NCBI GenBank assembly: GCA_036386795.1
Contig: DASVUZ010000062.1
Location: forward strand, 23,710 to 87,709
Source of the DNA: Allosphingosinicella sp.
GTDB taxonomy: Bacteria; Pseudomonadota; Alphaproteobacteria; Sphingomonadales; Sphingomonadaceae
Direction: 5' to 3'
DNA: 64,000 bases
This document shows, one piece after another, positions 22,947 to 50,927 of this stretch (position 1 is the stretch's first letter; every line of letters starts with the position of its first letter). The position numbers and the translations under genes were made by a program. The notes beneath the pieces were generated by a model. It saw only the letters and a program-made list of their open reading frames with translations. It was not told where the DNA came from and made no database searches.

Positions 22947-22959
22947 GCGGCGTCGGATC

Positions 22960-33050: not shown

Positions 33051-33101
33051 GAGACTAGTCCTCTCGAGTCAAATCGCCGGTGATTCGGCCTGTGGACCCT
33101 C

Positions 33102-33746: not shown

Positions 33747-34268
33747 TCATTCAGCTCGCAGGAAGGCAGCGAAGAGTTCGTCGGCCTTCGCCCGTCCCTG
33801 CGCCAGCTCGGCCTCGTCCCTATAGGGTCGGACGAGGGTCGGCATAGGCCCCCCATGAGTCAGCCTCAGGGATACCACCTCCACGCCAGTGGCGATCAGC
33901 CACCAGCTTCCGCCGCCCGGCGTGAAGAGTTGAAAGCCGCTCAGGACGACAATCCCGACGTCCCACAAATAGGTGTCGACGGTCAGTCCGTTGCGGCCTT
34001 CCCCCTCCGAAAGGCATCCGACCATTAACGTCACCTGCCGTCGTCGCGCCCAAGCCATCATTTCTTCTTGGGGCGGGGCGGCGCCGACGACGATACCGAG
34101 GTCGACGTTCGGAACGGGAAAGTGCCGGAGCTCGGGGATAGGCGGCTCCTGCTCGCTCAGACTATCGCCGATTCGGGCCGACATCCTTGCAGCCAGGAAG
34201 AGTTGGGCTCGCCGGCCTCGGCGATGGTCCGCAGGAGATGGCGTGGTCGGATGAGTGGCAGAGCTCAT
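33747..34268 (-). CDS. Hypothetical protein
   Basis: Protein-like composition in the C-terminal ~145 aa; start uncertain. Confidence 0.4.
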   Translation of the reverse strand: MSSATHPTTPSPADHRRGRRAQLFLAARMSARIGDSLSEQEPPIPELRHFPVPNVDLGIVVGAAPPQEEMMAWARRRQVTLMVGCLSEGEGRNGLTVDTYLWDVGIVVLSGFQLFTPGGGSWWLIATGVEVVSLRLTHGGPMPTLVRPYRDEAELAQGRAKADELFAAFLRAE

Positions 34269-34357
34269 GAAGCGCCTTTGGCTTAACGGGTGGGCAGGCG
34301 AGTTTGTGGGACCGGCTCAGCGCGGAGCCGGTTCTCCGATCGCCTCTTCCGGGATGC

Positions 34358-34687
34358 TTAGCGATTGTCCCCGAGGACGATCGTGGCCAGGAACCTCCGC
34401 ATCTCTGCGCAGACGGCGTTAGTGCGGCCGATGATGTGGCAGTCGCCTTCGCGCATCATCCAGACGCGGCCGTGCTCGTCGACCTCGAACTCGAGCTCGA
34501 CGTCCGTGCGAAGCTGAGCTTCGCTGAGCCCCGCGGCGGGTCCCTCGGCAATGGCGTCGGCCGCCATCGATGCATAGGCCGCCGCCTTGTACAGCTTCGC
34601 TTCGTCCAGCTCGGCTGCAAGCCGTGTCGCGGCATTGCTCAGGCGCAGAGTCGGCAGAGGATAGGTAAGATCCGGTTCGTCGGTCAC
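34358..34687 (-). CDS. Hypothetical protein
   Basis: 109 aa, globular-looking composition. Confidence 0.5.
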   Translation of the reverse strand: MTDEPDLTYPLPTLRLSNAATRLAAELDEAKLYKAAAYASMAADAIAEGPAAGLSEAQLRTDVELEFEVDEHGRVWMMREGDCHIIGRTNAVCAEMRRFLATIVLGDNR

Positions 34688-35142
34688 AGCCCGTCCTGAA
34701 GGTCAGGTGTGTCTTAGCGGGCGAGCTGAACGAAGCGGCGAGGCGCGCAACCGGCTGCCGGAAGGCACTGGCCGAAACGCCTGCCGGCGCGTGCTCGAGA
34801 TGGTGGGGAGATCTCGCATCGGGTCATTCTCCACGATCGGGGAGAAGCCCGCCCCCGGGCATCGCCTCCGAGTTGCGAGGCGATGCCGGCCGGAACCGGA
34901 CGTTGATAACCTGCGAGTAACAGGCGCGGACACCTTTGGTCGGGCGGCCGTAGCCACGACGACTTGGACATAGCGCCGCCATCCGGTCGACCAGCGGTCG
35001 AATACCGGTTCTACTCGCGAGGTTATCAAGCCTCGACCCACCAAAAGCGGTGGGCCGCGCAAGTTAGTCACGCGAAACTGTAAAAATCAAGCATTGATTC
35101 ACCGGTTTCCGTAGAATCTCGTCATCGCCGGCCCGCGATCGC

Positions 35143-36042
35143 TTAGTCGGGCTGCGCAAGCCTCTCCCGGCAGACGCGCTCCACGATCTGCTGAAGCCCG
35201 GTCACCCGTTCGGTGAGCCAGTTCAGCTCTTCGTCGTAGATCTTGTAGTGCGGCGAATAGCGGGCGTTGACGTAGGCCTGGCGCAGCAACTCGAAAGCGC
35301 GCCGCTCGAATTTGCCCTCTCGAGGCCACGCCTCGATCAGAGCCGGGGCGATCTGCTCGGCCTGGGACCTCAGGAAATTTAGCTTGTGGGACTTCGGGCT
35401 GTAGAGCGTCAGCACCAGCAGTACGCAGTGATAGAAGCGCTCTGCGGCCTGGTGCAGCTCAAAGGCGGCCTTGTTCGACCAGCCCCGACCGGCGGCATCC
35501 TGGCCGTGGACCAGAAACTGGCCCGCGCTCGGGAACCACTCGTTGAAGTAAGCCGCGGCCTCTGCCCGCTGCTGCTCCGGCGGCAGCCTCCGAGGTGTCG
35601 CGAACGGAAACCCTTCGGCCTCATAAAGCGCCACCCCGTGCTCGGCGATGTCGACGAAGAAGGGGCGCCCGCGCTCGAGCTGGCTGTTCACGTCGCTGAG
35701 CGAGTGGACGATGAAGTTGACCGGCGCGCTGAGGGTCTTCGCGATCGAAGTCTCTCGAAGCAGCCTGTCGTCGGCTACCGACCAGAAATCCACCACGTCG
35801 GTCAGCCGCTCGTCGCTGACGACCACGAGGATGTCGTAGTCGGACCGATAGCCGCCAACGGGATCGTCTACCCACCCGCCGCGGGCGTAGGAGCCGTAGA
35901 GCACCACCTTGAGAATGCGGCCGCCCTTCTTCCACCCCTGGGTCGCCCGAGCGGTCACTGACTCGAACTCCTCGAAGAGAATGCGCACGACAAGTGCGAG
36001 CTCGCGCTGCTTCGTCGAAGGAAGGTCAAGGTCGGTTCGCAT
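35143..36042 (-). CDS. Fused nucleotidyltransferase (MNT)-HEPN protein
   Basis: LYGSYARG..SDYDIL (MNT); AAFELHQAAER, AYVNARY (HEPN). Confidence 0.9.
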   Translation of the reverse strand: MRTDLDLPSTKQRELALVVRILFEEFESVTARATQGWKKGGRILKVVLYGSYARGGWVDDPVGGYRSDYDILVVVSDERLTDVVDFWSVADDRLLRETSIAKTLSAPVNFIVHSLSDVNSQLERGRPFFVDIAEHGVALYEAEGFPFATPRRLPPEQQRAEAAAYFNEWFPSAGQFLVHGQDAAGRGWSNKAAFELHQAAERFYHCVLLVLTLYSPKSHKLNFLRSQAEQIAPALIEAWPREGKFERRAFELLRQAYVNARYSPHYKIYDEELNWLTERVTGLQQIVERVCRERLAQPD

Positions 36043-36170
36043 CTAGCCCCTGTTGACCGGATTACCGGTAGCACCTGACGTTCGTCCTAGCGCCGATTGT
36101 CCTCGACCGCCACGTCCGCCCGCAGCATCGTCTTAGAGGACCACTACGGGCCTCTCCTCAGTGGCCGGGG

Positions 36171-37235
36171 CTATTGTCTTTCGATGCTGGCCAACCAGTC
36201 CATCAGGATCTGCGGCAATGCGAGCCGACCCCCCGCCACGCGCTCGCGATCCTCCTCCCAAGGGAAGTCGGTGATAGGAATGCCGCGGTCGCCCAGTTCC
36301 TGCATGAAGTCCCCGAACCGGCGTATAGCTGCCATCCACTGATCTTGGGGTATCTTGACGGGCGGGTCCTTCAGTCCACCTATGGCGCATAGGAGCGCGG
36401 TCTCGTCGAAACGGTCCCTGAGCTGCTCCCTAGTGAGGCTACGCAGATAAGGGTTGCGGCTGTACTCTGTGCGCCAGCGCTCCGAGCGAGGCGCGATTTC
36501 GGGGATATGGTCGATCGTCACAAACTCATCGACTGAACCGATTGGCTCTTGGTCGTACCCGTTTTCGCTTCCCCACCGGTGGGCGACCAGGTCCAGCACA
36601 TCGCCCTTCCACGGGTGGTCGTAACAGCCGGGACCTTCGATGGTGACAATGGGATAGGTCAGCTTGTTGTTCTTCACCGTGGCATGGCGCTGGGTGAGGT
36701 ACAGGATGCCATCCACATGCCCGTAAAGCGGCCCATCCCCGTCCGTGCGCCGCACGGCGTGCCAGAGGATGTACGAGACGGTATGAGGGTCGTAGATCTC
36801 GTGATCCTCATTCACGAGCACCAGCAGTCGCACCATGTTTTGCCGCGGAAAGGAAGCCTCATGCGCCCGGAGTTGGCGGTTGGCCTTTTTGAGGTGATTG
36901 ATGATTGCTCGCCCGACACGGTCAATCATGCGACGCCTCACGCCGTCAGGGTCGTCCAGGTTCTTGATGAAGGACTCCATCGGGGCGGAACCGAGAAAAA
37001 TCGGCCAATCCTCTCGCTGCCGTAGCTCGTCAGTGAGGTTGTCGATCCGTTCGGTCGCCGGCTCCTCCAGCGTCTTGAGCTCGACCGCCAAAAGGCCTCG
37101 AAGGCAGGCGTAATCGATCCGTGTGGCCTCAGGGGAATGAGTATCGTCGAGCGAGACTCCGCCAAGCGTCGCCGTCAGATACTCTACCACCCGTGGCGTA
37201 AGGGGCCCGATCTTTCCAGTTCGCTCGATCCGCAT
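36171..37235 (-). CDS. Hypothetical protein with a PD-(D/E)xK-like motif
   Basis: 354 aa; RIDYACLRGLLAVELKTL fits D-x(n)-ExK. Confidence 0.55.
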   Translation of the reverse strand: MRIERTGKIGPLTPRVVEYLTATLGGVSLDDTHSPEATRIDYACLRGLLAVELKTLEEPATERIDNLTDELRQREDWPIFLGSAPMESFIKNLDDPDGVRRRMIDRVGRAIINHLKKANRQLRAHEASFPRQNMVRLLVLVNEDHEIYDPHTVSYILWHAVRRTDGDGPLYGHVDGILYLTQRHATVKNNKLTYPIVTIEGPGCYDHPWKGDVLDLVAHRWGSENGYDQEPIGSVDEFVTIDHIPEIAPRSERWRTEYSRNPYLRSLTREQLRDRFDETALLCAIGGLKDPPVKIPQDQWMAAIRRFGDFMQELGDRGIPITDFPWEEDRERVAGGRLALPQILMDWLASIERQ

Positions 37236-37404
37236 GGCTCACAGGTAGGAGTGTCGCCCTGCGTGGGGAAGTCGACGATCCGGGTGGAGATGCACTCTAA
37301 AGGCTCGGTAAGATTTGCAGATCACCGATGGGCCGGACGCCCCCGGGCGCCTGGAAGGCCCTTAGGTCGCAAAGGCCTTGTGATGCCACGCGCCGCCAAT
37401 GCGC

Positions 37405-38766
37405 CTAAGTTGCGCGAAATTTGACTCTGTCGAGGCCATCCAGAAATGCCTGACGCGAGTCGAAAATAGTCAGGCCGGTGATGGCTTTGTGAAAGGCAAT
37501 GAAAGCAAGCCGGAAGAGTCCATCCGCAACCTCCTCTTCTGCGATGCCCGCGAGACGGTGAACGATGCCGGATCGGAAAGCATAGGCTCTCTTGTAGGTC
37601 GAGACAGCCTCAAGCCGCTCACTTTGCGTGTGTGCGGTTAGGAAGGCCACCCGATCCGCCACCGAATACTGAATTGGTTCGCTCTCGTCCCGGACGAGCA
37701 GACATTCGAGGGCGGAGATGGCACCAACGAGGCGATCGCCAGCGTCGTACCGACCGATGGCGCGGCAGAAGCCGAAGAAAGCGTGGCGAAGCCGCTCCGC
37801 GAAATCGTTCAAAGGTCGCCCATCGAAGAAATGGCCGATGTTGGCCAAGCTTCCATTGGTGAGCTGCTCGATGTCCGGCGCCGACAATTTCCACATAGCG
37901 AGGCCGGCGTGGAAGAACTCGGCTTCAGCTCCGACAAGACGAGAATCTTCGAGCCGTAGCATTTGGATCGAGGGCAACGGATCGTGTCCGAGCGGATGTA
38001 CCGGACTTGGCACAGTCGCGGAGATCGCCGCGGGTGACATGAAGCGGATCACGCCGGCGACATCCCGCGCGACTTCCAGGGCCCGGTCAGCGGCGAAGCG
38101 CTTTTCACCCAGCGTCCGCACCTCGACGGCCGCCACATTGCCGAGCTTTCGGCCAAGCTCTTCGCTGCTGCGTCCAGCATTCTCCTTGTCAGGATGGCGC
38201 TCTCGAGCGCGCTGCGCGGCCTCCTCAAACAATTCAGGTGGCACGGTGATTAGGCGAACCTCTCCGATCTTGAAGTCGTGCGCGATCTCCAGATAGGCTA
38301 GCGGGACCAGGTAAACGTGCTCTGCGTAGGCGCGGCTGCACTCATTCAGCAGGTGCGACGCGAGGCCAACCGCCGTCTTCCCCGTCGATGACGCTTGGCA
38401 CCAAGTAATCACCGCCCTCTCCAGAAATCTTCGGGAAAAGCCGCTGCGGAACGGTTGCTTCCGGCCAACATCTTCAACCAAGAGGCGCAGCTCACGATAG
38501 CCGGGACCGCTGAGCGTCATCTGCTCGGCCCCTTCATAGTAATACCAGCCGGTGGTGCGGAGGCCGGCGTCGCAAAGCTCCCCAAAGGGGTCGCTGGCAA
38601 TCGCGTGAACGACCTCAGCAGGGCGGCGGCTCTCGAAGGGTTCAGGGGGCGACGGCGGAGGCGGCCTGCGCTCGAATAGCGCGAGCAGGCGATCACCTCG
38701 GCGATCGAACGACGCTGCCGCCTTTGGATGGAGCGCCTGCGCATCGAAGGAGGCTCCGTTGCTCAT
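37405..38766 (-). CDS. Apea-like HEPN domain protein
   Basis: C-terminal ISALECLL...ADRVAFL...AYAFRSGIVH (R-x4-H). Confidence 0.75.
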   Translation of the reverse strand: MSNGASFDAQALHPKAAASFDRRGDRLLALFERRPPPPSPPEPFESRRPAEVVHAIASDPFGELCDAGLRTTGWYYYEGAEQMTLSGPGYRELRLLVEDVGRKQPFRSGFSRRFLERAVITWCQASSTGKTAVGLASHLLNECSRAYAEHVYLVPLAYLEIAHDFKIGEVRLITVPPELFEEAAQRARERHPDKENAGRSSEELGRKLGNVAAVEVRTLGEKRFAADRALEVARDVAGVIRFMSPAAISATVPSPVHPLGHDPLPSIQMLRLEDSRLVGAEAEFFHAGLAMWKLSAPDIEQLTNGSLANIGHFFDGRPLNDFAERLRHAFFGFCRAIGRYDAGDRLVGAISALECLLVRDESEPIQYSVADRVAFLTAHTQSERLEAVSTYKRAYAFRSGIVHRLAGIAEEEVADGLFRLAFIAFHKAITGLTIFDSRQAFLDGLDRVKFRAT

Positions 38767-38854
38767 CGGAAGAGCCTCTACTGGCGCAACGCCTCAGCTC
38801 AAAGGCCCGATGCATCTGACATCGATCGGTCGACGTTGAGGCTTGCCGTGCCTC

Positions 38855-39058
38855 CTAGCGAATACCACGCCGCGACAGGACTTTTGCAGCCTGGATCAGA
38901 GAGGCAGCGTCCTGGCACGCTTGGTCGAGGTCGCTGAGCCTCAGCTCCACCTCCCGTTCGGTCGCTGGCATTGGTGTCAGCGCAACGGGGCCGTTGTCTT
39001 CCATGATGATGCCGACGGCTGCGCTGAGCCGTTCCACCAATTCGTTCGCTTCAGCCAC
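38855..39058 (-). CDS. Small hypothetical protein
   Basis: 67 aa, helical composition. Confidence 0.4.
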   Translation of the reverse strand: MAEANELVERLSAAVGIIMEDNGPVALTPMPATEREVELRLSDLDQACQDAASLIQAAKVLSRRGIR

Positions 39059-39175
39059 GCGGTCCTCCTGCTCCAGAGGCCAGGCTCGCGCCTGCCCCGC
39101 CTAGATATATGAACCTCATATACCGTTTGCGCGCGTGTAGGGAAGCCACCACTTCAATTTCCTGCGCGGGGGCGG

Positions 39176-39433
39176 GTGGCGAGATCCACACATTCGGAGC
39201 CGTACAAGCTCCTGCTCGAGATGCTGATTGAGGCGCGGATGCGGGCCGGCGTGACTCAGGTCGAGCTTGCTGCTCGCCTTGGTCGACCCCAGCCCTTTAT
39301 CTCCTTCGTCGAGCGTGGCGAGCGCCGCGTCGACGTGATCGAGTTTTACGCGATCATGAAGGCGCTCGGCGCCGACCCGGAGCTGACCTTCCGGGAGCTG
39401 ATCGGGAAGCTGCCCGACAGGCTCGAAATTTGA
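39176..39433 (+). CDS. XRE-family HTH regulator
   Basis: EAR..AGVTQVELAARLGRPQ.FIS.VERGERRVDVIEF. Confidence 0.9.
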   Translation: MARSTHSEPYKLLLEMLIEARMRAGVTQVELAARLGRPQPFISFVERGERRVDVIEFYAIMKALGADPELTFRELIGKLPDRLEI

Positions 39434-39449
39434 CGACCGATACCCGCCC

Positions 39450-39548
39450 TTGTGGGTACATATGGGGGAACGCCTCCGGCTCTCCACCAGATAGTTTAGC
39501 GATTACGGTGTCTTAGGCCGCCTGGATTGGCAGACAATGCCTCCGCCA
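39450..39548 (+). other. Internal arm-type site and degenerate att copy (relic element end)
   Basis: TTGTGGGTACATATGGGGGAAC (17/22 to the left arm site), then GCCTCCGCCA at 39539-39548 (9/10 to the tRNA 3' end). Confidence 0.5.
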
Positions 39549-39839
39549 TAGGCTGAAATGGCCGAGAGCTAAAAGTCCGCTTCAAACGGCGAAGGCTCGA
39601 CAGTAGCCATTTGCGTGGCGCGATAAATAGTCGGTAGGGTGCTGTCAGTCCAATGCGAGCCCCTTTTTTAGTAATGCGGGGCAGCCTTGTGAGGGCGCGC
39701 CTGAGCTCGCGATATACTGCCACTCAGCTATGAGGCGGGTGCACAAAGCATCCTATGCCAACACGCTGTTTTGAGTGGTCAAGGATAGCCCGACCCTACC
39801 ACTAGCCGGGGACGGTCAATCCGCCGCGGCGGATCTGGG

Positions 39840-40979
39840 TCAACTGATGGGCCGGGCTCGGCCCACCTGCGCCTCGTCGCCTTCGAGTCGGACCACCCAG
39901 CTGCCGGCGCCATCCTCGCCAGCGCGGCGGGGCATGGCGCCAGGCGTATCGCTGGGACTATCGGCCGTTTTTAGAGGCTTTGGCAGGCGGCCGTCGATCG
40001 CGTCGCTGATCGAGTGGCGCTCGATGCCGACAAAAGTCGGCTTGAGCGCCAGCCGCGCCAAGGCTTCCTGATCGGCGATCGACAGGTCAGTTTCCCCGAG
40101 CGGCCCACCCTTGGTTACAAAGCCACCGATCACCTCGTCGTCAGGCGCACCTTGGGCGCGATTGACACGATAGGTCTCGGTGCGGTCCAGCGCGCCGCGC
40201 GCTGTCTCAGCCGCCGCCTCGCGGCGGTTTTTAAATCGCTCCCGGATCAGCCCGTGAATCGGCTTGGCGAGCTGCTTATGGCCCAGCGCATCGAGTAGGC
40301 TCGCTATGTGCCAGCGAGCGATCCCCAGTGCCAGGGCCTCGACCTCCTCGGGCGCGATCGCTCCTTCCTCGTCGGGATCGTGCACCCAAAGCATCGGCTG
40401 GCTAGCGATGGGTGTCGAAAATCCCCAGCGCGTGGCGATGGCGAAGCGCTTGAAAGGCGCCAGGGCAGCCCCGGCCCTGATCTCGGCGCGCTGCGCCTGG
40501 GAATAGGCGCGGGCCAAGGCCGCCTCGGGGCCTTTCGGATGATGGCAGCCCTTGGCCTCGACGATCGCCATGCCGGGGGCCACGCCCCAGGCGACCCAGT
40601 CAGGCATGTCGCCGTTCGCTCCCGCGACACGGTGGAGCGCACCGTGCAGGTGCCCGGTCAGCGTCATCGGCGGTTTGCGGACATGGGTGAAGTGCGTCAG
40701 CCCAAGGAACTTCGTCGCATAGGCGCGGGCGACGAACCGGCCGAACAATCCGGATATCGCCGTCTTCACCTCGCGGGCATGGCCAAGCTGCTGGGCAAAG
40801 GTGAAAGTCGAGGCAGCGGGATCGAGCAGAGCGTCGAGGATCTTCCAGTTGCCCACCGCGGCGCCGGGCGTCTGCAAGATCTCGAGTAGCCCAGCATCCT
40901 CGATTTCCCGAACTGTCAGGTCGATCGTCGAAGCCGTGCTCGCGGTCGGTGTGCTGAAGCGATGGGCAAAATTCGGCAT
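39840..40979 (-). CDS. Putative PD-(D/E)xK nuclease
   Basis: MPDWVAW...AIVEAKG; start chosen at ATG 40979 (frame is open to 41105). Confidence 0.65.
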   Translation of the reverse strand: MPNFAHRFSTPTASTASTIDLTVREIEDAGLLEILQTPGAAVGNWKILDALLDPAASTFTFAQQLGHAREVKTAISGLFGRFVARAYATKFLGLTHFTHVRKPPMTLTGHLHGALHRVAGANGDMPDWVAWGVAPGMAIVEAKGCHHPKGPEAALARAYSQAQRAEIRAGAALAPFKRFAIATRWGFSTPIASQPMLWVHDPDEEGAIAPEEVEALALGIARWHIASLLDALGHKQLAKPIHGLIRERFKNRREAAAETARGALDRTETYRVNRAQGAPDDEVIGGFVTKGGPLGETDLSIADQEALARLALKPTFVGIERHSISDAIDGRLPKPLKTADSPSDTPGAMPRRAGEDGAGSWVVRLEGDEAQVGRARPIS

Positions 40980-41181
40980 AAGCCCACATCGCACCAAAGC
41001 AAGGTGAGGCCAAACCGAGATTGGTCGAGTATAGGCACGGGCGCCCGCGGCGGATAGTCGCCTCCCAACAATCCCCTCCGCCATCAACACTGGCGCAGCT
41101 AGCAAGGCCTCCTAAATAGGATCGAAAGAATAGAGCGGTGCCGTGCCGGAAAATCGCGGCATCAAACCCGGGGATGCCAGG

Positions 41182-44100
41182 ATGAAGTGGATCACGACCG
41201 CGCAGCTCGACGCATGGGGACGGACAAGAACGTCAGAGACCGAGCTCCCGGGCATGATCTCCGATCTTGTCCGCGCGACAGCGCCAGACATCACCGCAAT
41301 CCGCTTTCCGACCGGTGAGAAGGGCCAGGTCCGTGGCTTCGACGGCGTGCTCGACAGCTCGGTCGAGGTCCTGAATGTTCCACAGGGAAGATCCTATTGG
41401 GAGTTCGGCACCGAGGCGGGTCACCAGGCCAAGGCACTCAAAGACTTCAAAAAGCGCACCGACCAGGTCAGCGCCACCGATCAAGCGGAGGCGACGTTGG
41501 TTCTCGTCACCCCCTTCACCTGGGATTCCTCCGATTCAAAAAACAAGATCGAGGATTGGGAAAAGGCCCGCAAGAAGGAGTCCGAATGGAAGAAGGTCAA
41601 GCTGATCGACGGGGCGCAGCTTGAGGACTGGCTCGCCGAATGCCCCGCAGTGTCGGCCTGGCACGCGAAGAACACTCTTCGGGTCGCCCCGCGGGAGGGC
41701 GTGCGCAGCACGGATGATTATTGGTTTGATTTCGCGGACCGATTCGACCCCCGGCTGATCGAGGAAATGCTCCTCGCCGAGCGCGAACGTCAGGTCGACG
41801 AACTGCTGACCGGCTTGATGGGCCCGCCCCAGCCGCTGCGCTTTATCGCCGATTCGCCAGACGAGGTGACTGCGTTCGCGGTGGCCGCAATCCGCTCGGC
41901 AAAACCCGAGGTGAAGCTGTTCCTCGAAGCGCGGACGCTAGTCGTCGACACTTCCGACGCCGCGCGCGAGCTGGCGGGCAAATCCAATCTGGTATTCCTG
42001 GTCCGCGGCGAAGCGGCGCGCGCGCCGGGTCAGCTCGGCGACACTGGCCCGACCCTCGTGCCGCTCGGCCGGCAACAGGCCGTTAAAAAGGGCACCCTGC
42101 TCGAACGCCCCAGCAGCTTCGCCATGGCGAACGCGCTTGCCAAGATGAACCAGCCCCAGGCCCGCGCGGAGGCGCTTGCCAAGGGCTGCGGCCGCAGCCT
42201 CACCGCGCTTGCCCGGCAAATCCCCGGTGGCACCTGCGAAGTGCCGGATTGGGTCGAGCATGCGCAATTGCTGCTTCCCGCCATCCTTGCCGGGGGATGG
42301 GACAGTACCAACCCGCTCGATCAAGCCGTGGTGACCACGCTCGCCGGCGCCAGCAGCTATACTAATTATGAAAGCAGGATTCGCGGCTTCGTCGAAGGTT
42401 CGGACCCGGCGCTAGATCGCGAAGGCACGGTCTACAAAGTGCGCGCCCCGATGGACGCGTTCGTACATGCCGGCCACCACATTGGCCGCGAACATTTGGC
42501 GCTCCTCCGGCCGGTGCTCGAGCAGGTATTCAGCGTGCTTGATCCCGACCCCGATCCCGACGAGTCGTTTCGCTTTGGCGCGGAACGGGTGCCGCGATAC
42601 AGCGACTGGCTGCGCGATGGCCTCGCCAACACGCTGCTTTTGATCGCGCTCTGGCAGGACACCGCGCGGCTCGATTTGACCCCAGGAGAGGGGCAGGCGT
42701 TCGCCGATAAAGCCATTGGCGAGCTTCCGGGTCTCAAGACCAACGCCAGGCTCCTCACAAGTCTCAAAAACGAGCTGCCAATTCTGGCGGAGGCAGCCCC
42801 AGATGTTTTTCTGTCGGCCCTCGAGCACATGCTCGAGGGCGAGGGAGCAGCGATCCGCCCGATCTTTGATGAGGTTTATGGTCTGTCCTTCCGAACCTCG
42901 CGCCACACCGGGGTGCTATGGGCATTGGAGACGCTTGCCTGGGATTCGCGGCGGCTACGGCGCGTAGCGCTGATCCTGGCGCGCCTCGCCGAGATCGACC
43001 CCGGCGGCCGGCTGGCCAATCGTCCCGATGCGAGCCTTGCCGATATCTTCCTGCCCTGGCATCCCGGCACGCATGCGCCGGCCGATGCTCGGCTTTCGGT
43101 TGTCGACGATATCATCGCGTCGCACCCGCAGGTGGGATGGAAGCTGCTGCTCCGGTTACTGCCCGACGAGATGCGCATCACAAGCGGCACGGCGCGGCCG
43201 CGCTTGCGCGAGTCGGACGTCCCGGCACCAGCAGTGACGCATCACGACCTGGCCCTCGCCTATGATGCGCTAATCACCCGGGCGATCGCGGCGGCGGCGG
43301 GCGATCCGGCGCGCATGCAGGAACTGCTGCGGCCGATGATGCGGTTCGCGCCACAACAGCGGGCGGCGGCGCTCCGGGCGCTGGACGATACGCTCGCCAG
43401 CGCCACTGGTGAGGTTCGCGAACAGCTCTGGACCGGGTTGCGCAGCACGTTGCGGCAACACGAACGGTTTCCGGACGCTGATTGGTCGCTTCCGACCGTG
43501 GAGCTTGCCGAGGTACGCCGCATCGTCGGTGCCTATGCGCCCGCCGATCCGGTCGTGTCGGTCGCTGAGCTGTTCGATGTCCGCGCGCTTGAGCGCGACG
43601 ATGCTGCCGCCGCTGCTGAGCGCGCGCGTGTGGTCGAGAAGCTATATCTCGAGCAGGGCTCCGAGGCGGTGCTCGCGCTCGCCGGCACCGCACGGATGTG
43701 GCATCTCGTGGTGCGCGCGATTGAGGACAGTGGGCTCGACACCGCGCAGGTAGAGACGTTGCTCCGGAAGAGCTTCGCTGCAGAGCCGGGTGGGTCGCTC
43801 GCAACCGCGCTCGCCTCGGTCTACCGCCGCCGCACCGACGAGGCCGCGGCGCTCCTGCTAGTGAAGGAGCTCCACTGCGCCTCCGGCAACGACGATGCCA
43901 CCGCCGCGTTGCTGTTTGCCTGGCCAGACGAGCAAGAGACCTGGCAGGCGCTACCCAAGATCGGGACCGGCGTGGAGGATAGCTATTGGCGCCACGTGAA
44001 GCCCTTCTGGATCGAGGGATCCCCACCGCTGCTGGTCGAGCGAGTGACGCGCCTACTCGAATATGGACGGGCGATCGCTGGCCTCGAATCGGCGCTGAAC

Positions 44101-44922
44101 CGGCTGGTCGACATTCCGACCGATCTGCTGTTCCGGCTGCTCGATGCGATTGTAGACGAGATCAACAGCGGGACTGCGCAGAGCATGGTAGCGGGCATGC
44201 TGGACTATGATCTCGAACAAGCCTTCCGTGCTCTCGATGCCCGCGATGCAGATGCCCTTGAGATCGGCAAGCGGGAATATGCCTTGCTGCCGCTGCTCGA
44301 ACGACAGGAGCGGCCGCTTCGCCTGCACGGCCTGATGCTCGCGGATCCGGAGTTGTTCCACAGTATCGTACGCGACGTCTATCGCGGCGACAACGACCCG
44401 CCGCCGGATGAAGCAAAGCTCGACCCGGCCGAGCGGGGCCGCTGGCGTCAGGCATATCGATTGCTCTCGAGTCTCGACCGGACCCCCGGCTTCCTGTCGG
44501 ATTCACCGGATCACGGCGTGCTGACGGCATGGATCGACCGGGTCCGCGAGCTCGGGCGCCAACATGAGCGCGCTGAGGTGACCGACGTCGTGATCGGGCA
44601 GGTCCTAGCCCATGCGCCGCAGGACGATGCGGATGGGGCATGGCCGCACCGCTTTGTTCGAAATGAGATCGAACGCGCCGCGAGCGATGAACTGGAACGA
44701 GGCATCCAAACTGAGCGATTCAACATGCGCGGCGTCACGACGCGCGGCATGTATGATGGCGGCGATCAAGAGCGCGTGCTGGCCGACGAATATCAGGGCC
44801 ATGCGCGCGCCAGTCATCGCTGGCCGCGGACGGCGGATATGCTGGAGCGCATGGCCGCCGGGTGGGCGCGCGATGCCGAGCGCCAGGATTTGGAAGCCCG
44901 GCAGCGGCGGCTGAGGAGCTAG
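41182..44922 (+). CDS. Large putative defence protein: N-terminal nuclease-like domain, degenerate NTPase-like region, helical repeats
   Basis: 1246 aa from ATG 41182; IRFP.G...GFDG...YWEFGT; no intact Walker A (FIADSPDE at the expected place); long helical C-terminus. Confidence 0.6.
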   Translation: MKWITTAQLDAWGRTRTSETELPGMISDLVRATAPDITAIRFPTGEKGQVRGFDGVLDSSVEVLNVPQGRSYWEFGTEAGHQAKALKDFKKRTDQVSATDQAEATLVLVTPFTWDSSDSKNKIEDWEKARKKESEWKKVKLIDGAQLEDWLAECPAVSAWHAKNTLRVAPREGVRSTDDYWFDFADRFDPRLIEEMLLAERERQVDELLTGLMGPPQPLRFIADSPDEVTAFAVAAIRSAKPEVKLFLEARTLVVDTSDAARELAGKSNLVFLVRGEAARAPGQLGDTGPTLVPLGRQQAVKKGTLLERPSSFAMANALAKMNQPQARAEALAKGCGRSLTALARQIPGGTCEVPDWVEHAQLLLPAILAGGWDSTNPLDQAVVTTLAGASSYTNYESRIRGFVEGSDPALDREGTVYKVRAPMDAFVHAGHHIGREHLALLRPVLEQVFSVLDPDPDPDESFRFGAERVPRYSDWLRDGLANTLLLIALWQDTARLDLTPGEGQAFADKAIGELPGLKTNARLLTSLKNELPILAEAAPDVFLSALEHMLEGEGAAIRPIFDEVYGLSFRTSRHTGVLWALETLAWDSRRLRRVALILARLAEIDPGGRLANRPDASLADIFLPWHPGTHAPADARLSVVDDIIASHPQVGWKLLLRLLPDEMRITSGTARPRLRESDVPAPAVTHHDLALAYDALITRAIAAAAGDPARMQELLRPMMRFAPQQRAAALRALDDTLASATGEVREQLWTGLRSTLRQHERFPDADWSLPTVELAEVRRIVGAYAPADPVVSVAELFDVRALERDDAAAAAERARVVEKLYLEQGSEAVLALAGTARMWHLVVRAIEDSGLDTAQVETLLRKSFAAEPGGSLATALASVYRRRTDEAAALLLVKELHCASGNDDATAALLFAWPDEQETWQALPKIGTGVEDSYWRHVKPFWIEGSPPLLVERVTRLLEYGRAIAGLESALNRLVDIPTDLLFRLLDAIVDEINSGTAQSMVAGMLDYDLEQAFRALDARDADALEIGKREYALLPLLERQERPLRLHGLMLADPELFHSIVRDVYRGDNDPPPDEAKLDPAERGRWRQAYRLLSSLDRTPGFLSDSPDHGVLTAWIDRVRELGRQHERAEVTDVVIGQVLAHAPQDDADGAWPHRFVRNEIERAASDELERGIQTERFNMRGVTTRGMYDGGDQERVLADEYQGHARASHRWPRTADMLERMAAGWARDAERQDLEARQRRLRS

Positions 44923-45389
44923 CTCTTTCCGCTGTCGTACGATGATCCAAGCCGCCGGGCGCCAGTCCTGCGCGCTCGCGGCTTGCCGCGTGGGCAGCAG
45001 ACTCCGGGCCGGGGCGCGCATGGATCGGCGCCTGTTTGGCGGAACGCCAGCTTTTAGGATCGACGCTTAAATCGTCGACCGGGCAATTGGGTGCAAAGTG
45101 GACATTGAACGCGCGGTGATGCGACCCAGTCGCTTACGGAGAGAGGTAGGCAGACACCACGTCTGCCATGGTTGAATTTAGCCGATCGCGGAGGGGCAGC
45201 TCGCAGGCGATCAGGGGTTAGCGGACCTGGGTTCAGCTAGATGCATAAGCTGCCTGGGACCCACAAGTAGGCGTTCCCGTCGGCGGCGAGGAAGCCTAGT
45301 AGGGTGAGCTCGCTTGGCAGCCCTGCACTGACACCACCTCGGGCGTGGAGCTATCGTCTTCGCTCAGGAATCCGCCTTCCGCGTCTTGG

Positions 45390-48300
45390 CTACGGAGCCA
45401 GATTTTGTCGCCGCCGCTTTCTTGCTCGCGGGGCCCTGTTTGACCGCCGCTTAGCTGCGCGGTCTAGTGCCGCGACGTCGAGCACGACAATGTCGGTGCG
45501 CGCGCGCAACTCCGGCGACAAGTCCGCCTCGAGTAACGCCGCAAGCTCCTGCCCGGAGGTCGGCACCACTCCATCCCTGCGAGCGGGCGGGGGTGCGACA
45601 TCGCCGAACCAGAAGATGAGCAACACTCCGTAGCCATCGGCACCCTCGTCAGCAACATAGCCTTGAAGTTGGCCTTCAGCCGCGTGCCAAAGGTCAGAAT
45701 GGTAATGGCGTTTCGCTTCGATCGGCAGGTTACGAGAGGCGCCTGATACGATGAGAACATCGGCACGGCTGTCGTCACGGCGCTGCGCTTCAGGGAGCGC
45801 GACAGCAATCCGGTACTTCACAAGCCGGTCATGAAGCCGGGTCAACGTGATGTCGCGCGCAATGTTCTCGATCTTGGGCGTCGTCGGTTTTCCATGCGCG
45901 TCGGTATTCCAATAGTCACGCCATGGGCTAGTGGCGCCCGTGCGCAGCTCCCGCGCGAACCGCCGCAGCTCGTTGACGACGACCGCCCGCAAATCCGCGG
46001 CGTTGACGGGAGCGCGACCCGCAAGCGCCTCGGCGACCGCCGCCGCATCAGGGGGGAGAAACTCAGCGTCACGCCGGGCGCGGCCCTGCTGCTCGGCCGC
46101 ATGCTTTAGAGCTGCATCCCATTTAGGATAGGCGGTGAGCTTAGCCTTCAGCGCGGCGATCGCGGCGGTAGCGTCGGGCGTGGCTAGCGCAGCGAGCCGA
46201 TTGAGGAAGGCGTTGCCGGCGTCGCTCTGGCGGTGTGATTGCAGAACCCGGCCGCTGCGCCGCTCGACATAGGGCTCCGCATGAGGCGCCACAAGTGCGA
46301 ACATTCCGGCCGCAATCGCCACCTGCTCCACGCCACTGCCGCGTGGAAAAACGTCGATCAGCCGGGTGCCCGATATCCCGTCGCACAAGGCGAGCAGATC
46401 CGCGTCGTCATTGCCAGACAGTGGATCACGGCCGCCGAGGGGGTCGAGCGCGAACAAGGTGAGGCCCCAGATCGCCCGCTGCTTTGCGGGCAGTGCCGAG
46501 CCGGCGAGAGCCGCGGCAGCGATTCCAGCCAGCGCGGCCCGGTCTAGGTGCTTTGCGGCCACCGCGATCAGGGTGCGCAGCGTGTCGGGCGGGAGCGCGG
46601 GATGGCGGGTCAGCATCGCCGCGCTCGCGAGCGCCACCGCTTTTCCGCCCCCATCGTCGCCGGCCTGATGCCAGTGGTTGCTGTGCCCGCCATGGGCGAG
46701 GATCGCCTCCCAGTAGCTCTCGAGGGCGGCGGCGCCGGCGACCGGGTCCAGGTTGAGTCGGTCCCAGGCCCAGCGCTCGAGGGCCTCGCGCGACCCGCTG
46801 GGGTGGGTGATCCAGCCGCTGCGCAGCACGATTATCGCGAGCGTGAGCGGCAGCGTAAGGAGGTCATAGTCGCCTTCCGACCGGAGCCGGTCCAATCCGG
46901 CCATCGCGGCATATTCGGAATAAAAATGGCCTCCCTTCGCCTCGAACTGGCCAAGTGTTTCGGGATGGACACCGGGAGTGTCGGCAGTCGCGAGGACGCG
47001 CCAGCCGGTTAGGATGGCGTCGAGCACCGCATCGTCGCTTTCGGCGGCGACTCGCTCCAGCCCCGACTGAGCGGCTTCCTTCTTGTCGCGCGGGTGGAAA
47101 TAGATTTCGGCAGCCCAGGCGAGCGTCGACTTGTAAAGCGCGCTGGCGATGCCGGCGATGTTACGCCGGAGCGTAGCGAGCTGCTTCGAGCGACGCTTTG
47201 CTTCGGCCTGACCGGTCTGACGCGCCCGCGTATACTGGCGCATCCGCCAGCGTTCGATGTCGACGACAGTGAGCTCGCGCAGCAGCCGCTTGCCGCTGCG
47301 CCGCATCGATTCGAGAAATGCGAATAGGCGCCAGTAAGCGTCCTGGCCAACATCGTAGCGCCGTGCGAGGTTCACCGCGATCGCGAGCGGACGTCGTTGA
47401 ATTGCGCCCTTCGCCTCCGCCGCGCGCGTCACGAGATGGTCGAGGATCTGGCCGTTCGGCGAGCCAGCGACCATGATATAGTAGGTGCCGATCATCCACG
47501 GGCCCTCGGCCGGATCGTCGGTCCCGAGGATCGATTCGAACAAGGCTAGCTCGCGCGACGGATTCGCCTTCAGCCATTCGGCCACGGCCGGCCGGGTGGC
47601 GTTGCGGAGATTGGTCCATTTGTCTTCGCGAGCGTGGACTAGCCAGCGCCACAATCGCGGCGCATCGAGGTCCGGGGTGCCGCGGATCGCAGCAGCAAGA
47701 GCATGGTCGAGAAGGTCCTCGACCTCGACGTCATGCCGACGCCCGCGCTCGGATGACAGCCAATCAAGCGGCGCATCGAACAGCGCCGGGCGCGGGTGCG
47801 CGACGAGGAAGCTGCGTAGGCCGTAAAGGCGCATGATCACATTATCATCGGGCAGTCGTACGAAATCGCCGATTAGGCTGGTGAGGTCGGCGAGGGTGAT
47901 CAGCTCGGGGGGCATCGCGCTCAATAACTCGGCGCGCACGGCCTCGCGCGCGGCCGAACGCGGCTCGGCGGAGAGCGCGTCGAAGAGGTCGCGGCGCGCT
48001 GCAGCGGGATCCGCCTGACCGTTAAGCCAAGCGTCGGTGGCCCGGGTGCGCTGCCACTCTGGCCGGGCCGGATCGAGGGCGATGGCTCGCAAGCGAGGTT
48101 TGAGCGACGCCACCGGCGGGCCGGCGCCGAGCACCTCATAGACCGTCATCATGCGGTGGGTGCCGTCGCCCTTTTCGATTGCGTGCGCTAGATCCTCGCT
48201 CAACTCCTCGCAGGCGAGCCCGCCGACCGACGTGGTGCCAACGTCTGAGGCGCGAAAATAGGGGTCGTGACGGTCAAGGTTGGCCAGCATTGCTCGCTTG

Positions 48301-49505
48301 GCGGCTGTGTCGAACACCGCGGCGTCACCATAAACGAGAGCGCTGACCGCATCGGCCTCGACCAGCTCGCGCGCCTCAGCATGCGCGCCGAACTTGGCGA
48401 GGTGGGCGGCGAACCAGGCGTAAAGCCCGCGCAGGTCGGTGGGCGCGCGGCCGTCCTTGCCGGTGATGAGCGCCGCGGCGCGGCCCAACGGCAGCGCCGC
48501 AGTGCTTGCGCCGCCGATTATCGCGCGGGCGAGCGCGCGGCCGCCGAGGAACTCGGCGATCGTCCGGTGAACGGGTTCGAACGCTTCGCCTTCACCGCGA
48601 AACAGCGCTGAGCCGACAAGATCGTCGACGAGCGGCGGGTCGAAACCCAGGGCGCTCGCCGGCAGATTGGCGCGCGCGTCGCCCGAGCGGGGCAGCGCTC
48701 CCGAGCGCCAAAGGAAGCGGCTACCAGTCACGAGCAAGAAGAGGCTCGTTGTGGCGGCCGCGGTGAGGATCGCCTCCGCGCTGGCGCGGCTGCGGTCAAG
48801 TCGATGGACCTTATTCTCTTCGTGGGCGAGCGCGCTGGTCGCCTGATCGAACAACGCAAACCGGGTGGTCGGCCATGGCTTGTCGCCGATCACCGCCTCA
48901 CGCAGCAACTTGAGGCTGAGTGGGCTTTCGAGCAGGCCACCGGCGCCCATCGCGAGCGCGCGGTCGACGAACGACTCGGGGTCGGCCTCGCCCAGCGCCT
49001 GCAGCACGGCGAGCGCCTCGGGGATTTCGAGCGGGAGCAGTTGCGCCACGGTGATGGGAGCGCCCGCGGTGGTGCGGCGGATCGCGTCGAGATCGGCGCC
49101 TTTCTGCCAATCCTCTGCACGGCAGGTCAGCCGCCACTGCGGCGTGCCGGCGGCGCGGATCGCGCCCACCAGCTGATGGACCTTGTCGAGATCGGTGGCA
49201 CCGACGCGATACTCGTCGAGTGCGTCGAGGAACAGCGTGCCGCCTGGCAGGTCAACGCTGTTGTTGATCAGTTCGCGGACCTTGATCACCGTAGTGCCGG
49301 CGGCGGCTGCCTCGACTTCGAGCACCGTCGTTTTGCCGATGCCGGGTTCGCCGAGTAGGACGAGATAGGGCCGGTCGCGCAGCGATGAGATGGTCGCCGC
49401 CGCCGCGGCGTCGCGGCCTCCATCTAGAATTTGGACTCGTCGATCGAGCATCGTTTGTCCGTCTATGGGCTCGCGAAATTGGCGCCGAGCGGTGTCCGAG
49501 ACCAA
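45390..49505 (-). CDS. STAND/NACHT-like NTPase with C-terminal PD-(D/E)xK nuclease
   Basis: Walker A GEPGIGKT, Walker B LFLDALDE, RLTCR, QLLPL; C-terminal RADVLI...IEAK..Y...W. Confidence 0.8.
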   Translation of the reverse strand: MVSDTARRQFREPIDGQTMLDRRVQILDGGRDAAAAATISSLRDRPYLVLLGEPGIGKTTVLEVEAAAAGTTVIKVRELINNSVDLPGGTLFLDALDEYRVGATDLDKVHQLVGAIRAAGTPQWRLTCRAEDWQKGADLDAIRRTTAGAPITVAQLLPLEIPEALAVLQALGEADPESFVDRALAMGAGGLLESPLSLKLLREAVIGDKPWPTTRFALFDQATSALAHEENKVHRLDRSRASAEAILTAAATTSLFLLVTGSRFLWRSGALPRSGDARANLPASALGFDPPLVDDLVGSALFRGEGEAFEPVHRTIAEFLGGRALARAIIGGASTAALPLGRAAALITGKDGRAPTDLRGLYAWFAAHLAKFGAHAEARELVEADAVSALVYGDAAVFDTAAKRAMLANLDRHDPYFRASDVGTTSVGGLACEELSEDLAHAIEKGDGTHRMMTVYEVLGAGPPVASLKPRLRAIALDPARPEWQRTRATDAWLNGQADPAAARRDLFDALSAEPRSAAREAVRAELLSAMPPELITLADLTSLIGDFVRLPDDNVIMRLYGLRSFLVAHPRPALFDAPLDWLSSERGRRHDVEVEDLLDHALAAAIRGTPDLDAPRLWRWLVHAREDKWTNLRNATRPAVAEWLKANPSRELALFESILGTDDPAEGPWMIGTYYIMVAGSPNGQILDHLVTRAAEAKGAIQRRPLAIAVNLARRYDVGQDAYWRLFAFLESMRRSGKRLLRELTVVDIERWRMRQYTRARQTGQAEAKRRSKQLATLRRNIAGIASALYKSTLAWAAEIYFHPRDKKEAAQSGLERVAAESDDAVLDAILTGWRVLATADTPGVHPETLGQFEAKGGHFYSEYAAMAGLDRLRSEGDYDLLTLPLTLAIIVLRSGWITHPSGSREALERWAWDRLNLDPVAGAAALESYWEAILAHGGHSNHWHQAGDDGGGKAVALASAAMLTRHPALPPDTLRTLIAVAAKHLDRAALAGIAAAALAGSALPAKQRAIWGLTLFALDPLGGRDPLSGNDDADLLALCDGISGTRLIDVFPRGSGVEQVAIAAGMFALVAPHAEPYVERRSGRVLQSHRQSDAGNAFLNRLAALATPDATAAIAALKAKLTAYPKWDAALKHAAEQQGRARRDAEFLPPDAAAVAEALAGRAPVNAADLRAVVVNELRRFARELRTGATSPWRDYWNTDAHGKPTTPKIENIARDITLTRLHDRLVKYRIAVALPEAQRRDDSRADVLIVSGASRNLPIEAKRHYHSDLWHAAEGQLQGYVADEGADGYGVLLIFWFGDVAPPPARRDGVVPTSGQELAALLEADLSPELRARTDIVVLDVAALDRAAKRRSNRAPRARKRRRQNLAP

Positions 49506-49600
49506 CTTTATCGGACAGCGGAGCGGGATCGGCCCGCTGTCGATTTGACCCGGAACCGGCGGGCGGCTCGCGGGTATGTCTGTTAGGAGGAAGGCGAACG

Positions 49601-49918
49601 GTGGACAAGAAGCTGCATCGTCGCCGCGCGCGGCGCGCCTGGCCGAAGCTCGTCGCCGCCGCGAAGCGCGGTAAGCCGCTTAGCTACAAGGAGCTCAGTG
49701 CCAGCATCGGAGAGCATTGGCGCGCCGCGAGCTGGTTTCTCGGCGTGATCCAACGCTGCTGCGCGAAGATGGGGCTGCCGCGGTTGCAGGCGCTTGCGGT
49801 TAACCAGCAGACCCGCATTCCCGTCAAGGGCTATTCCGGCAGCCGCGGAAGGCGCGCGCACGCGCGAGAGGTCGAGCGGGTACGCGAGCAATGCTGGCCT
49901 AAGAAGGCGCCGTTCTAA
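49601..49918 (+). CDS. Small winged-helix-like protein
   Basis: GTG start with AGGAGG RBS at 49585-49590; LSYKELS..IG...FLGVI..CC...GLPRLQALAVN. Confidence 0.65.
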   Translation: MDKKLHRRRARRAWPKLVAAAKRGKPLSYKELSASIGEHWRAASWFLGVIQRCCAKMGLPRLQALAVNQQTRIPVKGYSGSRGRRAHAREVERVREQCWPKKAPF

Positions 49919-50927
49919 GCCTAACCGATCTTCAGGTGCTCGGCTCGAGCCGCGACAAGAGATATTGCCGAGCCACTCACTTTACCCAAACGGGTAGAGG
50001 CCCCCGGCGTCGCAGCTGCCGGCGCAGCAAGGCTCTCGGCTATATCTCGGGACAGACGCTACAGCGGCTCATCGTCCTGACCCACTGGGGAATAGAAACC
50101 CGTGCAAAAGGAGACGCCGCGGCCACTTCTGTCAACGACGTAGGCATCACAATGACCGAGAGCTGCGCAGCGAACCCTGATCAGGGTACAGCCTCCGCAT
50201 TGCTCCCACAGCTCATCCACGAGCCGAAAACGAGCGTCCAGCCGTGGCTCGATCTCGTCTTAATCTCGGTCCGCTTCCAGCTCTCGCAGACTCCTTGCAT
50301 TTCCTTTCACCAGTGGAAACCCTCTCTGCGGGGATAATCGACTACAATCAGAGCTTTATGCCTGCTCTGACGATGAAGGCTACCGCGAGTAGGTGAAAGC
50401 GTAGTGAAAGGAATTGAACTTGGTAGACGGTTCCCTCGAAGACATTCGCCACCCTTCGACCTCTCCTTCAGTGACCGTACCGAATGGCGCTCCATGTCTC
50501 AGGCGGGCCTGAGGTCCGGCGCCGACATTCTCTTATCTCCTCACATAGCGTGTGAGACGCGGTAGCGAGGCTAAGTCACAGGGATCAAATCTTTATTTTG
50601 GCACGTCGTGCGAAGCGCAGCTGCGAAAAAAGATAAGGCTAGGATAAGATATCCGCTGACCGACAGGCGAAGGGGGCCCTCCAGCCAGTACGGTCGGGGT
50701 ACGGTCCGGCCGCCGGCGGAGGCGAACCCACGGTTAAACCCCAACAAATCGCGGAGCCGATTGCCGAGAGATTTGATGATTTTTTCCGGGGGATCCTCCG
50801 CTTGCGGGCACCGCGCGCGAGACGGCAGTAAACCGCTATTGTCGGCTCGCCTGGCTACGGCAAATTTGTCCATATTTCGTTCCACCATTCCAAATGCGCC
50901 AGCCGAGCGCCATAGTGCGATGATCAA

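Follow-up and report, generated by a model that had tools for sequence, protein, structure and literature searches.

A 1246-amino-acid (aa) protein encoded on an integrative island of Allosphingosinicella sp. combines a C-terminal half homologous to the sensor of the antiphage protein Avs8A with a variant nuclease domain at its N-terminus, and has no P-loop at the intervening position, where a STAND nucleoside triphosphatase (NTPase) would be expected. Its gene (the large gene) lies in a stretch of 64,000 nucleotides (nt) of contig DASVUZ010000062.1 (assembly GCA_036386795.1), referred to here as the window and numbered from its first letter, and stands head to head with a gene for a 379-aa protein (the small gene). 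A preliminary description of the two had proposed an NTP-independent pattern-recognition nuclease, possibly co-regulated with its neighbour. Our analysis retains an Avs/NLR-type sensor-nuclease without a P-loop, on the basis of Avs8A homology, an Mrr domain and a structural match to Avs4, and discards the partnership. We consider it rather likely that each of the two genes is a cargo module of its own, independent of the other, within the defence part of the island, the large one encoding an Avs-type receptor-like nuclease that is a distant relative of Avs8A.

A sensor homologous to that of Avs8A

The system first described as PD-lambda-4 is now named Avs8; its A protein combines an Mrr nuclease and a helical sensor with a STAND NTPase that has a P-loop (Vassallo et al. 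2022; bioRxiv 10.1101/2025.07.02.662641; Lee et al., Nature 2026, PMC13581612), and Avs8 senses HK97-fold major capsid proteins (10.1101/2025.07.02.662641; PMC13581612). The large protein had no match in Pfam or among the PDB sequences, and a match to the NCBIfam model tail_join_FII was set aside at 19 bits, below the cut-off. The sole match among defence models was to PADLOC PD-Lambda-4_A, in which residues 573–658 aligned with model positions 591–676 of 1283; it covers 86 residues and not the full length, and it scored 19.9 bits (E=2.9e-5), where true Avs8A sequences score 640–2488 bits. Avs8A reference genes were taken from other genomes for profile comparison. Using hhalign against four Avs8A sequences, residues 506–719 aligned with 525–735 (E=4e-9), and a profile of 59 family members, six of them distant, aligned with one of 16 Avs8A sequences over 677 columns (504–1242 with 530–1281, E=1e-13, P=98%), while controls with reversed columns, block-shuffled columns and two large helical neighbours from the window gave E>=0.03. 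The second-best match was collinear with the first and joined residues 20–341 to 17–380 (E=2e-3, or 2e-4 with 125 sequences), and a motif following the nuclease, IDGxxLExWLxxCPAVxxW, corresponds to LDFxGxSQLAxWxEQYPSVALW in Avs8. At the level of profile comparison, these alignments show that the sensor half of the large protein (approximately 504–1242) is homologous to the Avs8A sensor.

Structure prediction, which had been suggested as a check against the known Avs structures, pointed in the same direction. The AlphaFold2 model (mean predicted local distance difference test, pLDDT, 87) had as its top whole-chain PDB match in Foldseek the structure of Avs4 with a phage portal bound (8dgf, E=1.2e-6). 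Generic alpha-solenoids came next at ~1e-4, a difference of about 100-fold, and SAMD9 was also among the matches. The earlier observation of a long helical region ending in RGVTTR...DGGDQER is confirmed, with RGVTTR at residue 1183, DGGDQER at 1192 and the predicted model all alpha-helical from about 475 to the end. These two strings belong to the most conserved C-terminal motif of the family, NMRGVttRGmYDGGdQER, in which N1181, M1182, R1183, G1184, G1193, G1194, E1197 and R1198 are invariant (53 sequences); the motif has pLDDT <50 at 1185–1192 and no clear counterpart in Avs8A.

A variant Mrr-type nuclease domain

The N-terminal 165 residues have a predicted alpha-beta-beta-beta-alpha-beta topology and align with the nuclease domain of Avs8A (19–163 with 16–173, E=4.2e-5, P=70%), where the reversed control gave E=0.51. 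The Mrr signature reads PDGGID...FQIK in Avs8A and RGFDG...WEFG in the window family, and the nuclease-like motif noted previously lies at residues 52–55 (GFDG) and 73–76 (WEFG). D54 and E74 are present in all residues aligned there (123/123 and 124/124, respectively), and G52 and W73 are also invariant or nearly so. At position 76, the place of the canonical lysine, 110 of 125 sequences have glycine and 11 have lysine. Among sequences with a residue at each of the two positions, all 113 without K76 have K84, which is missing from nine of the 11 sequences with K76; this near-complete mutual exclusion is significant by Fisher's test (p=3.5e-11, uncorrected for phylogeny, the K76 sequences forming two clades ~38% identical to each other). 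The alignments place the N-terminal domain in the Mrr-type PD-(D/E)xK class, in the variant form D...ExG...K, and the residue pattern suggests that the catalytic lysine migrated from strand position 76 to K84 on the next helix. Because the shift can be read as compensation, the nuclease appears to have been under selection to stay active, and it is probably active.

A middle domain without a P-loop

A P-loop of the form GxSGxGKT occurs in all 16 Avs8A sequences, whereas the aligned site of the family, directly after a beta-strand, reads A-D-S-P-D-E-V (223–229 in the large protein). The lack of an intact P-loop, remarked upon earlier for this protein, extends to the whole family: GxxxxGK[ST] was found there in none of 125 members, including relatives scoring ~650 bits from other classes, some of which are headed by a helix-turn-helix (HTH) domain. 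Since even the distant members have no P-loop, its loss appears to be ancient and family-wide rather than a recent decay. A loose Walker A regular expression matched within residues 150–420 in only four of 59 relatives. One chance string of the large protein, ARELAGKS, was considered as a cryptic P-loop and rejected, being helix-loop-strand in the model instead of strand-loop-helix and falling where the family consensus is AGRxLxxxxNL.

The model places four to five strand-helix units at 218–305, followed by a helical bundle and a beta-hairpin. D224, A231, F232, R262 and L307 are nearly invariant among the 125 sequences, and G337, L343 and R345 are conserved within residues 311–470. A weak hhalign path pairs ADS..., LVFLLRG and TLVPLGR with the strands of Walker A, Walker B and sensor 1 in Avs8A, respectively, and it continues collinearly with ARGCGRSLtALaR on the helix GNARVALAIA. 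From its position, its predicted topology and the full-length fold match to Avs4, and not from its sequence, we infer a dead STAND module in the middle domain.

A large and mobile family

The large gene is one more member of a large, still unnamed family. More than 700 homologous clusters at 90% identity were found, nearly all of 1240–1250 aa and all labelled 'hypothetical', and an exhaustive phmmer search of 1.84 billion representatives of 50%-identity clusters returned 6,051 at E<=1e-3 and 2,565 at E<=1e-30. By a pattern scan of one genome per species, the family occurs in 444 species belonging to the Alpha-, Beta- and Gammaproteobacteria, Acidobacteriota, Bacteroidota, Cyanobacteria, Verrucomicrobiota, Cloacimonadota and Ignavibacteria, with one Firmicute; it is also found on plasmids of many genera, and the closest named relatives are from Pacificimonas (81–82% identity). 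The family is already catalogued as phrog_18693 (PHROGs v4, function unknown; E=0, 1320.6 bits, residues 1–1245 with 1–1255 of 1258), an entry without functional or domain annotation. The GenBank phage collection gave a single, fragmentary match, so the family is not typically phage-borne in that collection, the PHROG entry notwithstanding.

Distant members (L027, L030, L031, L032 and plasmid hits H3–H12 and H16) carry an in-frame N-terminal HTH of the HigA/Xre type (~90–110 aa, for a total of 1346–1359 aa), and because of this head they are annotated as 'helix-turn-helix transcriptional regulator' or 'HigA family addiction module antitoxin'. There is thus an annotation gap, every database consulted labelling the proteins of this family 'hypothetical' or, if HTH-fused, 'HTH regulator'. 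Among 79 loci from different species, the only recurrent neighbours of the large gene are tyrosine integrases (nine) and serine recombinases (six). DNA homology to a relative with 86% protein identity extends only 12 bp beyond the start and stop codons of the open reading frame (ORF), and the unit of exchange is therefore essentially the ORF itself. The large gene is mobile and appears to be a stand-alone module.

DNA resembling the family turned up in 188 of the 5,426 complete E. coli genomes (~3.5%); for the matches listed, the underlying features bear the annotation 'hypothetical protein'. In an ssrA-integrated island of E. coli O104:H4 (NZ_CP027394.1, 1734817–1742882), a P-loop-less member of 1248 aa (full-length identity to the large protein 35%) faces a canonical Avs8A of 1283 aa head to head across 468 bp. 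This Avs8A is 93.5% identical to the reference Avs8A, has an intact Walker A motif and is followed by Avs8B.

Neighbours rather than a pair

The two genes are intact, divergent and head to head, as first described, with a spacer of 202 bp where about 200 bp had been given. Homologue alignments open at MPxF for the small protein and MxWIT for the large one, and because they begin there, the ATG codons at 40979 and 41182 were chosen as the starts; longer frames from TTG and GTG codons find no support in the family alignments. The spacer showed no sigma-70-like consensus site, no inverted repeat of note and no operator-like repeat, and promoter and terminator scans stayed at background level.

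Comparison of neighbourhoods, which had been proposed as a check on the pairing, did not bear out co-regulation or partnership. No member of the small family lies within 4 kb of the large gene in the 79 large-gene loci, and in the 81 small-gene loci the 5 kb around the small gene are likewise free of the large family. A sample of 401 genomes from the phylum had the large family at full length in seven (including this genome) and the small family in three, with both together in the window's own genome only. The large-gene homologues in Kushneria, Leisingera and Rhodopseudomonas have unrelated neighbours, those in Kushneria and Rhodopseudomonas being solitary between housekeeping genes, and two metagenome relatives with 84–86% identity to the large protein have no small gene. 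The lone trace of the arrangement is in two loci, L011 and L012, around a large homologue of 84% identity. Both keep the spacer, which in L011 is ~80% identical to that of the window, and a ~59-nt relic of the small gene (L011:8721–8779) that opens with the same start, MPTF..., and is then frameshifted and diverged. The head-to-head layout therefore predates this genome, and in both loci the large gene is still intact after loss of the small one.

The possibility that the small protein is a homologue of Avs8B was rejected, since blastp, hmmsearch and hhalign all stayed at noise level. A canonical Avs8A was looked for in the window's genome and none was found, and the large gene has no Avs8B-like co-oriented gene downstream, the next gene being convergent; in the 79 loci no neighbour recurs apart from the integrases and recombinases. 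The small gene is an unrelated neighbour of the large gene, their adjacency is in our reading historical and not functional, and the 'pair' in the window is not to be handled as one system.

The small protein

A stand-alone small nuclease of the PD-ExK type had been proposed from the motif PDW...IVEAKG, and the protein fits this assignment: the motif is present (PDW at 126–128, IVEAKG at 139–144), the predicted topology agrees with it, and the protein stands alone in the window. The family comprises 746 homologue clusters of ~375 aa without annotation, in which E70, D127, E141, K143 and Q161 are invariant (48 sequences). The AlphaFold2 model (pLDDT 89, predicted TM-score 0.90) places E70 on a long helix (69–90), D127 at the opening of a strand, E141 and K143 on the next strand and Q161 on the helix 152–162, giving a core of alpha-beta-beta-beta-alpha-beta topology with the motif order E...PD...ExK...Q; additional conserved domains lie at the N-terminus (EIEDAG..LQTPGA) and, rich in beta-strands, at the C-terminus. 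Searches of Pfam, NCBIfam and PDB sequences yielded nothing useful. The family profile aligned with the motif region of the FAN1 VRR-NUC domain at 118–170 (E=0.26), and Pfam VRR_NUC matched one of the 48 members (E=0.018). A fold search of the PDB and BFVD gave no match at E<=0.001, and the matches to nucleases were weak and scattered, with AdnA best in the PDB (E=0.17, nothing there below E=0.1), YqaJ best in BFVD (E=7e-3), and VRR-NUC and RecU among the others. By its signature and predicted topology, the small protein fits a PD-(D/E)xK nuclease of the VRR-NUC/RecB-like kind, and it is probably another stand-alone conflict or abortive-infection effector.

The contexts of the small gene are mobile-element and defence-like but variable; it directly follows AbiJ/Abi_C in a Sphingomonas element and an unknown gene elsewhere. 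Its flankers in other loci (HipA, AbiJ/Abi_C, and unknown proteins of 195, 278, 313, 430 and 492 aa) have no counterpart in the window and are mutually unrelated. One clade of the family, which makes up one of 12 clusters at the 60% identity level and accounts for 44 of the 81 loci, lies in a conserved hipB-hipA-X-AAA-ATPase operon (seen among the metagenome loci L144–L203 of the small family, e.g. L187:3406–4992 and L154:6089–8815), which encodes in order an Xre-type HTH protein, a HipA-like kinase, the small nuclease with a median gap of 24 bp, and an ATPase of ~870 aa with the Walker A motif GDNGAGKS, often with an extra protein of ~450 aa. This HipBA-linked operon looks like an undescribed multi-gene module. 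A copy of the small family at G168:C32:54083–54827 (L040, L042 and L043) is in three pieces in different frames and is probably a pseudogene; a canonical Avs8A in genome G024 is likewise split, into two ORFs.

The island and its other cargo

The region that holds both genes begins with a tRNA-Ser(GCT) gene followed by a tyrosine integrase gene, and the 3' end of the tRNA gene (20696–20710) is repeated exactly as a 15-nt direct repeat at 59249–59263. With tRNA-Ser and integrase at the start and a copy of the tRNA 3' end at the finish, we interpret the region as an integrative island of ~38.5 kb with the second repeat as its right end (Table 1). This end coincides with a return to higher GC (guanine plus cytosine) content, which is mostly 0.60–0.68 from ~22 kb to ~60 kb and 0.68–0.72 in the first 20 kb of the window; a 23-nt repeat of the tRNA end was sought as attR and not found. 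The cargo comprises copper-resistance genes (CopB, a multicopper oxidase and a P-type ATPase), then a run of conflict type that includes a HEPN and nucleotidyltransferase protein, two unannotated proteins and the small and large genes, and further a 1371-aa frame of the EruA type, a 2029-aa protein with a double-PIN-associated HTH, and a trypsin-like protease. The 1371-aa frame, convergent to the large gene, matches the NCBIfam model NF058535 (antiphage_EruA) over its full length with E=2.4e-252 and 841 bits, the curated cut-off being 1000, and by this match it is a divergent protein of the Erebus/Avs10 type. The Avs10 (EruA-type) family, too, senses capsid proteins (PMC13581612), and the island would hold at least two genes of capsid-sensor type side by side.

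Table 1. Features of the island and of the two divergent genes (positions in the window; residue numbers refer to the protein named)
Feature	Coordinates	Strand	Basis
Integrative island at tRNA-Ser(GCT), ~38.5 kb, holding both genes	20618..59263	.	tRNA, integrase, 15-nt repeat, GC
tRNA-Ser(GCT) gene, left end of island	20618-20710		
Tyrosine integrase gene, after tRNA-Ser	20827-22032		
Small gene, 379 aa; predicted stand-alone PD-(D/E)xK (VRR-NUC/RecB-like) nuclease-fold protein, separate unannotated family	39840..40979	-	ORF and start
Small protein, residues 65-200: predicted nuclease core with E70 (REVK helix), D127 (PDW), E141-x-K143 (IVEAKG), Q161	40380..40787	-	alignment and model
Divergent intergenic spacer, 202 bp	40980..41181	.	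sequence
Large gene, 1246 aa; candidate P-loop-less Avs8-like sensor-nuclease, family phrog_18693	41182..44922	+	ORF and start
Large protein, residues 1-165: Mrr-like PD-(D/E)xK domain, G-F-D54-G...W-E74-F-G76, K84 on next helix	41182..41676	+	model and hhalign
Large protein, residues 214-310: predicted compact alpha/beta domain at STAND nucleotide-binding position	41821..42111	+	model, alignment
Large protein, residues 261-268: ARELAGKS, chance Walker-A-like string	41962..41985	+	regular-expression match
Large protein, residues 311-470: predicted helical bundle and beta-hairpin (winged-helix-like) at STAND HD/WHD (helical and winged-helix domain) position, ARGCGRSLtALaR	42112..42591	+	model
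Large protein, residues 475-1246: alpha-solenoid sensor, homologous to Avs8A sensor	42604..44919	+	PADLOC, hhalign
Large protein, residues 1181-1198: NMRGVttRGmYDGGdQER, most conserved C-terminal motif	44722..44775	+	family alignment
Erebus EruA/Avs10-type antiphage NACHT protein, 1371 aa, convergent to large gene	45390..49505	-	NCBIfam NF058535

Discussion

A role of the large gene in defence is suggested by its surroundings in the island, because a gene of the EruA/Avs10 type adjoins it and genes for the HEPN-nucleotidyltransferase and the double-PIN-associated HTH proteins lie nearby. In the mechanism that we favour, the alpha-solenoid would wrap a conserved phage protein, which by homology with Avs8 and its HK97-fold major capsid ligand may be a capsid protein. 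Binding of the ligand would lift autoinhibition and allow self-association through the remnant nucleotide-binding domain (NBD) and winged-helix module, with no binding or exchange of nucleotide, and the nuclease domains so brought together would degrade DNA and abort the infection.

Several observations weigh against this reading. The window's own protein has glycine in place of the canonical lysine of ExK, R297, the arginine that would correspond to sensor 1, is retained in no more than 76 of the 125 sequences, and the middle region alone (165–480) aligned with the Avs8 NTPase at E=0.1 in hhalign with 125 sequences, which is the level of the control. The TM-score to Avs4 is only 0.19, a point against a STAND origin of the middle domain, and low TM-scores are to be expected of long flexible multidomain chains. 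The sensor is ~16% identical to that of Avs8A, and the proposed trigger is extrapolated from this similarity; for the small protein, none of the hidden Markov model or fold matches is individually significant. Of the preliminary label 'dead NTPase', the absence of a P-loop stands for all 125 sequences, and the identification of the middle domain as STAND does not stand on sequence.

The main rival, which we regard as unlikely, holds that the middle domain was never an NTPase. On that view an alpha/beta and helical linker of unrelated origin would join the nuclease to an Avs8-type sensor, and the protein would work as a monomer or dimer and not oligomerise as NLRs do. The want of significant profile similarity between residues 165–480 and the Avs8 NBD agrees with this view, as do an alpha/beta part of ~90 residues, small for a STAND NBD, the lack of a P-loop in relatives of any depth, and the precedent of proteins such as Dsr1, in which Avs7-type sensors are functional in the absence of any STAND domain (PMC13581612). 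It fits poorly with the collinearity with Avs8A from about residue 16 to the last at near-equal length, with the weak hhalign path that sets ADS..., LVFLLRG and ARGCGRSLtAL on Walker A, Walker B and GNARVALAIA, and with Avs4 as the best whole-chain match in the PDB. We give a low probability to the idea that the large protein is a helper, decoy or regulator of a canonical capsid-sensing STAND neighbour, in the manner of paired plant NLRs. The head-to-head member beside Avs8A and Avs8B in O104:H4, the frequency of family-like DNA in E. coli genomes and the convergent EruA/Avs10-type neighbour of a capsid-sensing family (PMC13581612) all lend it some appeal, but no STAND neighbour recurs in the 79 loci, the gene is solitary in Kushneria and Rhodopseudomonas, this genome has no canonical Avs8A, and the catalytic D/E and compensating lysine, apparently kept under selection, would be superfluous in a pure decoy.

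There is a slighter chance still that the large protein is not immune at all and serves a mobile element in maintenance, exclusion or regulation, as the HTH-fused relatives, the annotations 'HigA family addiction module antitoxin', 'addiction module' and 'XRE family transcriptional regulator', and the constant link to integrases and plasmids might suggest. Those annotations stem from the small HTH head only, which the window protein lacks; over half of the protein is homologous to a validated antiphage sensor, and the neighbourhood is of defence type. That the divergent genes form a two-gene system co-regulated from the 202-bp spacer is very improbable and largely refuted by the comparative data. 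The head-to-head layout and its survival in L011 and L012, which places the arrangement before this genome, are the points in its favour, and they are set against the reciprocal neighbourhoods (0/79 and 0/81), the single shared genome among 401, the intact large gene where the small one was lost, the lack of relationship between the small protein and Avs8B, and a spacer without an operator-like repeat.

In mechanistic models of bacterial Avs proteins and eukaryotic NLRs, the nucleotide-binding domain is the switch that licenses oligomerisation. A sensor-nuclease of the kind that we favour bears on these models, and we tentatively raise the possibility, itself rather doubtful, that the family is a major NLR-like receptor class without a nucleotide switch, in which the acidic, invariant A-D224-S-P-D-E loop and the arginines around it would fix the former NBD in one state, activation would depend on the ligand alone and the nuclease would have rebuilt its active site as the catalytic lysine moved from the ExK strand to K84 on the next helix. 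If this were true, ATP binding or exchange would be dispensable for receptors of this type. The family would offer a natural test of the dispensability of the switch, being intact, strongly conserved and mobile, with sensor and apparent catalytic residues kept and no P-loop.

Among known systems, the VRR-NUC/RecB-like nucleases, such as the FAN1 domain, share motif order and core with the small protein, although without a significant profile or fold match. For the large protein, the best solved match, Avs4 (8dgf), has the same order of nuclease, switch and helical-repeat sensor; however, Avs4 needs ATP, has intact Walker motifs and shows no sequence similarity to the large protein. The nearest precedent for the missing P-loop is KpAvs8, described by Lee et al. 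(PMC13581612) as a protein of the Avs8 type whose Walker motifs are degenerate; it was cloned and assayed, and a model was made of it together with its target. By this description, KpAvs8 resembles the large family in its Walker motifs and may be either a member of the family or a decayed canonical Avs8A, and because this natural P-loop-less protein is already published, a nucleotide-independent Avs8 is not an entirely new idea. The closest likeness is to Avs8A itself, which is similar in length (1283 versus 1246 aa), collinear from residue ~16 to the last, and has in common with the large protein an N-terminal Mrr-type PD-(D/E)xK domain, the motif hDxxxLxxWLxxxPxVxxW, a middle alpha/beta and helical module and an alpha-solenoid. 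The large protein differs in having ADSPDEV and LVFLLRG in the places of Walker A and B, a nuclease motif of D...ExG plus K84 where Avs8A has D...QxK, and no Avs8B-like downstream gene, at an identity of ~16%. Since the defining NTPase and Avs8B are absent, we class the large protein, from its sequence, as a variant of the Avs8 kind and not as a member.

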